Position numbers and translations under genes: made by a program. DNA of 64,000 bases from Scenedesmus sp. PABB004 (taxonomy: Eukaryota), in the NCBI GenBank assembly GCA_014905635.1, contig JABVCE010000050.1:1-64000 (forward strand). Reading direction: 5' to 3'. The notes beneath the pieces were generated by a model. The model ran no database searches and was not told the DNA's origin. It worked only from the letters and a program-made list of their open reading frames with translations. Within the stretch, counting starts at the first letter, position 1, and each line of letters opens with the position of its first letter. Of this stretch, positions 59,808 to 64,000 are shown piece by piece.

Positions 59808-60997
59808 ATGGCGTGGCCGGAGCGGCCAGAGACGGAGCGGGTGCGTGGGGGCAGGGAGGAGGGGCAGCGGGAGCCAGGGCGACGGCCGCCGAGCGCGCCC
59901 ACGCCGCCGCTGCTGCCCCGGCGTGCGCCGCCGCGCGCACACGCAGCTGTTTGGCGACAGCGTGCCGTCGGTGCCGCTCTCGACCGCGAGCGCGAGCCAC
60001 GGCAGCCTCGCGCCGCTCGCGGCGGCCGGCGGCGGCGGCGGGTTTTGGGAGGAGAACACGCTCGACGAGTCGGTCTGGGCGACGCTGAAGCGCGACGTGC
60101 TCACGATCGGGCGCAACCTGCGCAGCGTGCTCATCCCCGTCAACTGGGACTTCCAGAACCACCAGGCCGCGCTGCACAACTGGGACCTGTGGGGGCCGCT
60201 GGTGCGGCGGCGCCGCGCGCCGCAGGTCAGGCGCCCGCCGCGAGCTGCTGCTGTGCGCGCCGCCGCGCCGCGACGGCCGCCCGCGGGCGCTGCTGCTGCG
60301 CGCGACGCGGCGCAGATCTTCATGCTCGGCCTGGCCATCACGCTGTCGGTGGGGGAGCAGAAGCCGTCAGACGTGTTTGCGGTGAGGCGCCGCGGCTGGG
60401 GCTGCAGCAAGCGCGCGGCAGCGCGTGCGCGGCGGCCGACGCGCACGGGGACCGGCGCGCGCGGGGGCCGACGCGCGCGCGCGCGCACGCCCCGCAGCTT
60501 GTGTTCACCGAGGTCGCGCTGGGCGCGTGCGTGCTGACCGTCAACGTCATCCTGCTGGGCGGCAGCATCGTGTTCTTCCAGAGCCTCTGCCTCATCGGCT
60601 ACTGCCTCTTCCCAATCGTCATCGCGGCCATCGTGTGCGTGCTCGTCAAAATGGCGGTGCGTGGCCGCAGCGGCGGCAGCGCCAGCGGCCGCGGGCGCGG
60701 CGGGCGCGCGCGCTGAGCGCCGCAGCGCGCGCCCGCCCACCGCCGCAGTGGGTGCGCACGCTCGTGCTCGTGGCGTGCCTGGGCTGGGCGTCGTTTGCGA
60801 CGGTGCCCTTCATTGGCAAGACCGTGTCGTCAGAGTGAGCCGCGCAGGCCGCTTCGCGCGCGCGTGCGGCCGCCGCATGCGCCGCGCCGGCGCGCTCACG
60901 CCGCCGCCCCGCCCCGCGCAGGCGCCGCGCGCTGGCGGTCTACCCGGTGCTGCTGATGTACGTCTCCATAGGCTGGCTCGCCCTAGTGAAGAGCTGA
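59808..60997 (+). CDS. YIP1-family Golgi membrane protein (YIP4/YIPF6-like)
   Basis: [56 protein letters not shown]. Confidence 0.92.
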
Positions 60998-61361
60998 GGG
61001 CGCGCCGGCCGGCAACGAGCGAGCAGCGCGAGCCCTGCGTCATGACGCCAGCCGCCGCAGCTGCCGCAGAGCGCCGCCCCGGCTCGGTCACAGGCCCACA
61101 GGCGACAGCCAAGCCAGCAGTCGCGCCCGCAGCTTGCAGCCGCGCAGCCTCCGGGGCGTGGCGAGCGCTGCCGCAGCCGCCGCCGCTGCCGGCAGACGGC
61201 AGCCGCGCGCTCCGCGTCCACGCGGGCGGAGCTGTGTGTGCTGAGCTTCCTGACCAGCCGCGCGCGCGGCACTCGCCCGCCCGCCCGCGCGCATCGGCGC
61301 CCGCGCTGCAGCCGCGCGTGGCGCGGACGGCGCGCGGTGACGGGCGCGTCCTGTGGGAGGC

Positions 61362-64000
61362 ATGGCATCGCTCAAGGTCTCGGCGCCAGATGGCGTCAAG
61401 GTGAGGCGCCCCGGCGGCGCGGCGCAGCGCGGCGGCTGCGCTGCTGCTGCCGGCGGCCGCGCGGCCGCCGCAGCGCGCAATCGTGCGCGCCAGCCTGGAT
61501 GCGGAGCGGCTGCTCTCTCTGGCAGCTGAGGCGCAGCGTTGCGCAGGTGTACACGGTGGGCAGCGGCAAGACGATGCCCGCGTGGCTGTCCGAGGCCAAG
61601 AAGCGCGCGCTGCGCAAGGACGAGGACTACAGGTGCGCCTGCGCCAGGGCGGGGGTCGGGGTGCCGGGAGGGAGGGCGGGACGGCCACGCGCAGCGGCGG
61701 CGCGCGGCAGCAGGGCAGCGCGCGGAGCACGCTGACCTGACGCGCGCTGCCCGCGTGCAGGCGGCGGCTGGAGCTGCTGCAGGACCTGCAGTTCCCCTCT
61801 GCCTGCCAGCGCATCAAGATCACGCCCGACCAGCAGTACATCTTTGCGACCGGCTACCACCCGCCCATGGTGCGCGCGGCGCGGCGCCGGCCGCGCGGCG
61901 CGGCGCGGCGCGCGCGGGGGCCCGCTGCGGCGGTTGCGGGGGTGATGATCTTTCACTTTTGCCTCATACTTCGCTGAAAGCCGCTCGCGGCCATGAGGAG
62001 ACACAAGTGAACACACCTGACCCGCCACGCCCGCGCGCGCGCGCCCGGCCAGCCGCGCCCGCGCGTGCGGCGCCGCGCCGCCAACGCGCCGCGCACGCCG
62101 CCGCCCCCTGCCCTCCCCGCCTGCCGCCCGCGCCGCCCGTGCTGCCCCTTGGCGGCGGCGGCGCGCAGGTGAAGCTGTACGACCTGCACAACCTGTCGCT
62201 CAAGTTTGACCGCCACCTCGACGCCGAGGTGGTGGACATGGTCGTGCTGAGCGACGACTACTCCAAGCTCGCCCTGCTCTGCGCCGACCGCTCCATCTCC
62301 TTCCACGCGCGGTTCGGGTCGTACACCAAGACGCGCACGCCCCGGCAGGGCCGCGACCTCGCGTACGCGCACGCGTCGGCGGAGCTGCTCGTCGTGGGCA
62401 GCGCGCCAGAGGTGTGGCGGCTCAGCCTCGCGGAGGGGCGCTTCATGGCGCCGCTGCCCGCAAAGTCGAGCGGCATCAACGCATGCGGTGAGCACACCGC
62501 GGCGCGGCCCCGGCGGCGGCGCGCCATGCCTGCGCACGCCGCCCGCGGCGCGCCGCGCCGAGCGCCCGCCGCCGCGCCTCCGCCGCCGCCGCGCAGGGCT
62601 GAGCCCCACGCACGGCCTGTTTGCCGCCGCGGGCGAGGACGGCCTGCTGGAGTGCTTCGACCTGCGCCAGCGGGGCAGCGTGGCGGTGCTGGACGCGGCG
62701 GCAGCGGCCGGAGCGCCAGGTGGGCGCCGCCGGCGGCGCAGCGGCCGCGCGGGGGTCCACGCGCCACGGCACTGACGCCGCCCTCCGCCTCGCCGCGCAG
62801 GCGCGCAGCTGACGGCGCTGCGCTTTGACGACAGCGGGCTGCAGCTCGCGGCGGGCACCAGCAGCGGGCTGGTGGGGCTGTGGGACCTGCGCTGCGCCGC
62901 GCCGCTGCTGGTCAAGGACCACATGTACGGCGCGGCCATCCGGGACATCAAGTTCCACAGCGGCGCGGTGCGGCACCGCGCGCGACCCAGCCCCCCGCGG
63001 CCAGCGCGCGCCCGCCTGCGCAGCTGCTCAGCGCAGCGCCCGCCCCCGGCCGCGCGCGCAGGCTGGCGTGGGCGGCGGCGGCAGCTCGCTGGACGTGCGG
63101 CGCGTCATCAGCGCGGACAGGCACATCATCAAGGCGCGGCGCGGCGCGGCGCGGGGCGCGCGGAGGGGGGGGGGGACCTCCAGCGCCGCGCCGCCGCGGC
63201 GCATGCGCTCGCGCGAGTGCGCCACGCATGCGCCCGCGCCGAGCGGAGCCGCCCCGCGCCGCCGCGCGCCGCGCGGTCAGGTGTGGGACGCGAGCAGCGG
63301 CGCGGGCTACACCTCGATCGAGCCCGCCGACGGCGCGGATATCAACGACGTCGCGCTCTGGCCGGGCAGCGGGCTGCTGCTGGTCGGCAGCGACGCGCCG
63401 CGCATCGGCAGCTACTTTGTGCCCTCCCTCGGCCCCGCGCCGCGCTGGTGCTCCTTCCTGGAGGGCCTCACCGAGGAGCTGGAGGAGGCGGCGCCCGCGG
63501 TCTACGACGACTACCGGTGAGAGGCGGGGGGGGGGGGGGGTGAGCGGCCCGGCGGCGCCGCGCGCACGCCGCGCGCACGCTGCGCCGCGCCCGAGCACGC
63601 GCCGCGCCCGCCTGCGCGCGCGCGCCGTGCGCAGGTTTGTCACGCGCGCCGACCTAGGGCGCCTCGGCCTGGAGCACCTGCTGGGCAGCCCGCTGCTGCG
63701 CGCCTACATGCACGGCTTCTTCATGGACGCCCGCCTCTACGCCAAGGCCGCCGCCGCGGCGCAGCCGTTTGCGTACGAGGCGTACCGCGCGGCGCGCGTC
63801 GCGGCCAAGCTCGAGGAGGAGCGCCAGGGCCGCATCAGCGTCGTGCGCAAGCTGCCCAAGGCGAGGCGCCGCGGCGCGCGCGCGGGGCGCCGGCCCCCGC
63901 TGCAGCGGCCGCGCCACTGACGCGCGCCCTCTGCCGGCCCCGCGCCCGCAGGTCAACCGCGCGGTCGCCGCGCGCCTGCTGGCGCAGCAGGAGGCAGAGG
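61362..64000 (+). CDS. NOL10: Nucleolar protein 10 / ENP2 (WD40), 3'-truncated by window
   Basis: [83 protein letters not shown]. Confidence 0.95.
61936..62025 (+). ncRNA. Intronic box C/D snoRNA (probable 18S rRNA 2'-O-methylation guide)
   Basis: C box GTGATGA 61942-61948, D' CTGA 61974-61977, C' ATGAGGA 61993-61999, D CTGA 62017-62020, terminal stem GCGGG/CCCGC. Forms an AT-rich island in an unusually long NOL10 intron. Confidence 0.88.

Follow-up and report, generated by a model that had tools for sequence, protein, structure and literature searches.

Locus and host gene

The sequence analyzed here comprises positions 1 to 64,000 of contig JABVCE010000050.1 from the alga Scenedesmus sp. 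PABB004 (assembly GCA_014905635.1), hereafter the window, and its subject is a putative box C/D small nucleolar RNA (snoRNA) that lies within an intron of the gene coding for NOL10 (Table 1). This host had been proposed in an earlier reading made from the DNA letters without database searches (here, the sequence-only reading), and the protein evidence bears it out. The exon that begins at 62169 matches the NOL10 N-terminal propeller (Pfam PF23098, 3.5e-13) and is 99% identical to P0001, a protein from a Scenedesmus strain named nol10 by NCBI. Sixty-nine proteins, out of 274 candidates, were related to this exon at E ≤0.001, and after P0001 the next relatives were found in chlorophycean and trebouxiophycean algae (66 to 73% identity). 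An exon fragment of 36 amino acids (aa) gave no match in Pfam. Thirteen NOL10 homologues align without gaps across the exon junction 61869/62169, so the 299 nucleotides (nt) between the two exons are an intron and not a skipped exon.

When P0001 was mapped onto the window, the introns of its NOL10 part measured 146, 128, 299, 109, 81, 94, 147, 118, and 91 nt. The host intron is therefore the longest that could be mapped, the others spanning 81 to 147 nt, just as the sequence-only reading had described an intron of about 300 nt that exceeds its neighbors. The snoRNA lies on the sense strand of the host, with 66 nt of intron ahead of it and 143 nt between its end and the 3' splice site. Ribosome-biogenesis genes had been named as frequent hosts of intronic snoRNAs, and such hosts occur in Ostreococcus tauri, where Ot-CDsno72 is located in NOP58 and Ot-CDsno16 in SAS10/Utp3.

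Table 1. Features of the candidate snoRNA and of its host intron, in coordinates of the window.
Feature	Position	Strand	Basis
Box C/D snoRNA (predicted), 90 nt stem-to-stem	61936..62025	+	Boxes, scans, CrCD06 homology
Terminal stem, 5' half, GCGGG	61936..61940	+	Pairs with 62021-62025
Three unpaired bases (bulge)	61941..61943	+	Last two are the start of the C box
C box, GTGATGA	61942..61948	+	Read from the sequence
Internal helix (proposed), 5' strand, TTCACTT	61952..61958	+	7-bp perfect complement of 62005-62011; in the minimum-energy fold
D' guide (predicted), TTGCCTCATACTTC	61959..61972	+	Antisense to 18S rRNA; followed by one base, G61973
D' box, CTGA	61974..61977	+	Read from the sequence
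D'-C' hairpin, GCCG/CGGC, 4 bp, loop CTCG	61980..61991	+	Folding
C' box, ATGAGGA (TGAGGA variant)	61993..61999	+	Read from the sequence; CTGAGGA in CrCD06-1 to -4
D-side spacer, 17 nt (the orphan D guide of the sequence-only reading)	62000..62016	+	Contains the 3' strand of the proposed internal helix, 62005-62011
D box, CTGA	62017..62020	+	Read from the sequence
Terminal stem, 3' half, CCCGC	62021..62025	+	Pairs with 61936-61940
NOL10 exon, upstream	61762..61869	+	Exact match to residues 297-333 of P0001
Host intron, third of NOL10, 299 nt, GT...AG	61870..62168	+	Junction ...HPPM|VKLY..., exon mapping of P0001
NOL10 exon, downstream, part of the N-terminal beta-propeller	62169..62489	+	Pfam PF23098, mapping of P0001

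The public model P0001 (1,004 aa) joins a protein with a Yip1 domain (PF04893; exons in 59808-60988) to NOL10. The join runs through a 391-nt "intron" and an exon of eight residues (region 59808-61403), and an in-frame ATG at 61362 looks like the start of NOL10 itself, so that the model is probably a fusion of two genes.

Architecture of the box C/D element

A C box (RUGAUGA) close to the 5' end and a D box (CUGA) close to the 3' end enclose internal D' and C' boxes, which is the arrangement of box C/D snoRNAs. The order C, D', C', D and the 5-bp closing stem had been reported in the sequence-only reading, and every coordinate proved correct when the sequence was read again. The stem, GCGGG/CCCGC, adjoins CUGA on the D side, and on the C side a 3-nt bulge intervenes between it and GA; in our reading, this combination of stem, bulge, and GA/AG would correspond to the geometry of a C/D kink-turn. 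The spacer between the C and D' boxes is 25 nt long, and TTGCCTCATACTTC forms its last part before a single base. The small hairpin noted between D' and C' is also present, with 4 bp and a tetraloop instead of 5 bp, since the longer version would leave an impossible loop of 2 nt. It folds at -5.6 kcal/mol, a value equaled by 18 of 200 shuffled sequences, and is thus weak when taken alone.

Both strands of the 64 kb were scanned for RTGATGA and CTGA separated by 45 to 110 nt and closed by a terminal stem of 4 bp or more, and 61936-62025 was the single match. A looser version, with one mismatch allowed in the C box and a stem of at least 5 bp, again returned this match alone. The word RTGATGA occurs four and six times on the two strands of the window, and dinucleotide shuffles of the window contained on average 0.04 matches to the complete motif, with any match at all in 8 of the 200.

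The composition of the element also sets it apart, as had been noticed in the sequence-only reading, which described it as an AT-rich island: its G+C content is 57%, versus 93 to 97% in the intron on both flanks and 79% in the whole window. The mapped introns of the P0001 gene region have 78 to 91% G+C, and the coding exons have the lowest values, roughly 60 to 70%. With exons as the low-G+C parts of the window, islands of low G+C mark exons and, here, a noncoding RNA.

The D' guide and its predicted 18S rRNA target

The complement of the D' guide is GAAGTATGAGGCAA. As a sample of 18S rRNA, we used eukaryotic 18S sequences that contaminate other collections, where a degenerate form of the word was found at one viral locus and at least 39 genome loci; the seven loci checked were all eukaryotic small-subunit rRNA by Rfam. 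In the 41 matches listed, from 40 loci, GAAG is followed by two variable bases and TGAGGCAA, directly before TAACAGGTCTGTG, an arrangement inherent in the design of the pattern. The two variable bases were TT in 37 matches, CA in two, and CT and CC in one each. Pieces of eukaryotic 18S rRNA turned up in at least 39 bacterial or archaeal assemblies, and one 31.7-kb contig of a Nostoc assembly (L011:1148-12560) carries a complete eukaryotic rDNA unit, with 18S, 5.8S, a large-subunit gene of 6.9 kb, and two group I introns.

Guides were compared with 8,879 nt of heterologous rRNA; the set contained 18S and 5.8S sequences and a single complete 25S-type rRNA, and no small nuclear RNAs (snRNAs). Against three 18S sequences of this kind (L019, L024, and L036), the D' guide gave 13 Watson-Crick pairs out of 14, starting at position 2 and in the correct register, just 5' of TAACAGGTCTGTG, where the sequence-only reading had placed its 18S target. 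This was equaled by only 1 of 400 shuffled guides, and the lone mismatch falls within the dinucleotide that varies among 18S sequences and taxa. With 13 of 14 pairs in register and this rarity among shuffles, the complementarity of the predicted guide to eukaryotic 18S rRNA appears to be real.

The fifth-base rule had been applied correctly in the sequence-only reading: the nucleotide predicted to be methylated is the last G of GAAG, opposite C61969. This G corresponds to G1412 of yeast and belongs to the 3' major (head) domain of 18S rRNA. In eight loci, it lies 227 nt before the equivalent of C1639, and the base located 211 nt before that position is the first G of CAGGTCTG. Counting from the 18S 3' end in one of these eight (L039) gives 1412 for the G of GAAG and 1428 for the G of CAGG.

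A described counterpart in Chlamydomonas

The supplement of PMC5122169 contains a box C/D family of Chlamydomonas reinhardtii, CrCD06 (sequences in Additional_folder_5 and _6), with five copies, four of them in tandem, ca. 150 nt apart on one scaffold. In CrCD06-1 to -4, GCCTCATACTTCG plus CTGA is identical letter for letter to the window (13/13, by eye), and the 13-letter stretch shared corresponds to the twelve 3' letters of the guide plus G61973. CrCD06-5 has GCCTCATACTTCG with one C-to-T change, which would still pair as G-U. The family reportedly stems from Chen et al. 2008 (Genetics 179:21).

The resemblance extends to the layout. A C' box of the TGAGGA type and a short D'-C' hairpin with different letters and the pairing kept occur in CrCD06-1 to -4, and a terminal stem, again with different letters and the pairing kept, in all five copies. 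In CrCD06-1, the copy in which this was checked, the stem has 5 bp and a 3-nt bulge before GATGA, as in the window. A helix between the spacers that follow the C box and precede the D box is found in CrCD06-1 to -4, as in the window, and is not evident in CrCD06-5. The total lengths are similar, 83 to 88 nt in CrCD06 and 90 nt here. Among the differences, the guide is two pairs longer in the window (14 bp, with TTGCC, versus 12 bp, with TAGCC), the D-side spacer has 17 nt (GACACAAGTGAACACAC) instead of 14 nt (CAAAACTCAAGAGC), with no conservation of its sequence beyond the ability to pair with the 5' spacer, and the internal helix stands 5 nt away from the D box, which it adjoins in CrCD06. 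There is also a single copy in the window versus the four in tandem on one Chlamydomonas scaffold. Outside the guide, boxes, hairpin, and stem, the sequences have diverged. This comparison was done by eye, and the folding tool was applied to the window element and not to CrCD06.

With the 13-letter guide stretch and D' box in common, the same unusual C' box, and the same layout, the RNA predicted in the window adds a member to a known algal family; the sequence of its D-side spacer does not link it to that family. The sequence-only reading, which identified a box C/D snoRNA correctly, all boxes and the stem being found and a homologue being described in Chlamydomonas, did not recognize that the family had already been described. 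Conservation in relatives, which it had proposed as a check, is seen through CrCD06, with the guide identical in two green-algal orders.

In a literature search, the name CrCD06 appeared in no main text. In the PMC5122169 supplement (file 8, row 157), the family goes under the name "snoR69 / CrCD06". AtsnoR69Y guides 25S Cm2949; its sequence has no likeness to either CrCD06 spacer, and neither of these would select a C. No land-plant snoRNA guiding the TT form of the site and no 18S alignment covering it were found in the text of that supplement, weak blanks given that several of its files were incomplete. The 14-letter words gave one irrelevant primer match in the literature. A scan for homologues in metagenomes returned seven loci, which we rejected as chance matches in coding-looking sequence of 39 to 49% G+C (four were the same stretch); the pattern, which required TTGCC, was too strict to detect even CrCD06. 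In viral contigs, no match to a looser snoRNA pattern was obtained.

A word similar to a C' box, TGAGG, occurs in the 18S target itself, and the D' guide (61959-61966) is accordingly in part complementary to the C' box of its own RNA (61993-61999). As a consequence, CCTCAT of the guide pairs with ATGAGG of the C' box over 6 bp in the naked-RNA fold. The same complementarity holds in CrCD06, and there may be some relation to the TGAGGA variant that both share.

The D-side spacer and a proposed internal helix

The spacer in front of the D box had been considered an orphan guide in the sequence-only reading. The lack of a target stands: its best match in the rRNA set was 10 of 14, a value equaled by 381 of 400 shuffled guides, and it has no match elsewhere in the 64-kb window. 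The corresponding motif of CrCD06 has no clear rRNA target either, with 10 Watson-Crick plus two G-U pairs out of 14 at best. What seems to need revision is its role as a guide. AAGTGAA, within the spacer, is the perfect 7-bp complement of TTCACTT, just after the C box, and the minimum-energy fold includes the resulting helix (z, -2.46; 2 of 200 shuffles fold equally well). Seven pairs were reached in 258 of 20,000 shuffles because one strand is rich in T and the other in A. By eye, CrCD06-1, -2, and -4 have a counterpart of 6 bp, GCTCTT/AAGAGC, and the third copy has one G-U pair. Compared pair by pair from the end next to the guide, the two algae share four pairs, and at the two others both bases have been exchanged (A-T to T-A in one, T-A to G-C in the other). 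The absence of an rRNA target, the pairing with the spacer after the C box, and these compensatory changes suggest that the D-side spacer is probably structural, one strand of an internal helix, and not a second guide.

The alternative is a true double-guide snoRNA, in which 62000-62016 would target a second RNA, whether an snRNA, an rRNA expansion segment particular to the lineage, or some other RNA, and its complementarity to the 5' spacer would be incidental or serve as a mask. A 17-nt spacer directly adjoining a perfect D box is what such a guide would look like, the targets screened comprised heterologous rRNAs and no snRNAs, with a single complete large-subunit sequence and a few partial ones, and a helix of 7 bp arising by chance in 1.3% of the shuffles is not negligible. 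We nevertheless regard a second guide as rather unlikely: the best rRNA match is at the level of nearly all shuffled guides, the spacer sequence is not shared with the D-side spacer of CrCD06 and yet its pairing partner covaries, and the supplement texts for plants, Chlamydomonas, and O. tauri, some of whose files were incomplete, contained no snoRNA with a guide of this kind.

Proposed function and weight of the evidence

The element is, very probably, a genuine intron-encoded box C/D snoRNA of about 90 nt, the counterpart of CrCD06 in a chlorophycean alga of the Scenedesmus type, and its guide would be directed at the equivalent of yeast 18S G1412. Intronic snoRNAs are released by trimming, and the biogenesis proposed here builds on this: the RNA would be transcribed within the NOL10 pre-mRNA and freed from the spliced intron by trimming that stops at the C/D kink-turn with its bound proteins. 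As the box architecture implies, its protein partners would be Snu13, Nop56, Nop58, and fibrillarin. The D' guide would pair with the 18S segment GAAG(UA)UGAGGCAA in the head domain (expected target word in the alga's own 18S rRNA, GAAGUAUGAGGCAA, directly 5' of UAACAGG), and fibrillarin would 2'-O-methylate the G opposite C61969. The D-side spacer and the spacer after the C box would pair with each other, making the stem longer beyond the kink-turn and leaving about 15 nt for a single working guide.

Several results weigh against this interpretation. The exact target word given in the sequence-only reading, with TA at the variable positions, was present in none of the 41 18S matches listed, and an exact 27-mer of 18S with TA had no match in genome_contigs. 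A perfect 14-bp fit of the guide to the alga's own 18S rRNA is therefore a prediction. When the D' guide was scored leniently against the heterologous rRNA, rewarding G-U pairs, 26 of 300 shuffled guides equaled it. The equivalent of G1412 is not among the yeast 18S ribose methylations in a full table of these; the predicted G is likewise absent from the sites mapped in Arabidopsis, tomato, and tobacco (PMC11542601, Table 2) and from the targets predicted for C/D snoRNAs of O. tauri. The comparison of the internal helix involves two lineages and was made by eye. Finally, no Rfam family reached the gathering threshold in the window: the matches to SNORD12, snoU31b, and snoU54 were weak and generic (15.5 to 16.8 bits, thresholds of 35 to 43, E of 1.1 to 2.4), and even the best of them, with 16.8 bits for a threshold of 43, shared the tendency of these weak matches to align little beyond the boxes.

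The missing Rfam family would also be expected if the element were a chance motif or a decayed, nonfunctional copy that is not stably expressed, and the C/D-plus-stem motif did arise somewhere in a few of the window shuffles (8/200). Such an origin is nonetheless highly improbable for an element that has D' and C' boxes as well, a guide matching 18S rRNA at 13 of 14 positions, and 13 letters of that guide identical to a described Chlamydomonas family, and that forms an island of low G+C inside an intron of 93 to 97%.

A genuine CrCD06-like snoRNA would add an unannotated gene to a very G+C-rich algal genome and would take a family so far treated as exclusive to Chlamydomonas into another green-algal order. 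Our understanding of snoRNAs would not change, and the element appears to be real, relevant for annotation, and unsurprising, presumably working like any box C/D methylation guide. More tentatively, and as a possibility that we would not yet call probable, RNAs of the CrCD06 type may be obligate single-guide snoRNAs. Their "orphan guide" would be a helix strand, kept by compensatory change between Chlamydomonadales and Sphaeropleales, that extends the kink-turn stem and sets the length of the guide, and this guide would write a ribose methylation in the 18S head, at the equivalent of yeast G1412, directly 5' of the U run that is pseudouridylated. Lists for yeast, three land plants, and Ostreococcus do not include this site, which thus seems restricted to chlorophycean algae. 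If this were true, a universally conserved region of the 18S head would carry a 2'-O-methylation specific to one lineage, and a covarying internal helix would account in a simple way for one class of "orphan" guides.

Comparison with known guides of the same 18S region

The same conserved stretch of 18S rRNA contains an ancient and universally conserved target, Gm1428 of yeast (snR56), which is equivalent to Gm1490 in human (U25/SNORD25), Gm1434 in Arabidopsis (AtsnoR19), and G1398 in O. tauri (Ot-CDsno72). All these RNAs resemble the window element in being C/D methylation guides for a G of this stretch, and Ot-CDsno72 is, in addition, intronic in a ribosome-biogenesis gene, NOP58. Pairing of the window guide less than 20 nt from Gm1428 could suggest that the element is one more member of the U25/snR56/AtsnoR19 group, guiding this conserved methylation. 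The register of the guide refutes this, and we give the idea practically no credence. The members of the group select the first G of CAGGUCUG (yeast G1428), and the guide of the window selects a G 16 nt upstream. Ot-CDsno72 is antisense to CAGGTCTGTGAT, a different word from the target of the window guide, and neither SNORD25 nor snR56 gave an Rfam match to the element, even at E ≤10. The group therefore differs from the CrCD06-like RNA in its target, 16 nt further 3', in its guide word, and in the absence of any family match.

The bases that follow the predicted G are targets of another class of guides. In yeast, snR83 is the guide for pseudouridine 1415. In O. tauri, the H/ACA snoRNA Ot-HAsno25 has 18S U1384/U1385 as predicted targets, 2 and 3 bases 3' of the G of GAAG. 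It differs from the window element in its class and in the product, pseudouridine instead of ribose methylation, and resembles it in acting at the same place, modifying the two or three bases immediately 3' of the same GAAG, which makes this a known modification spot of the 18S rRNA.

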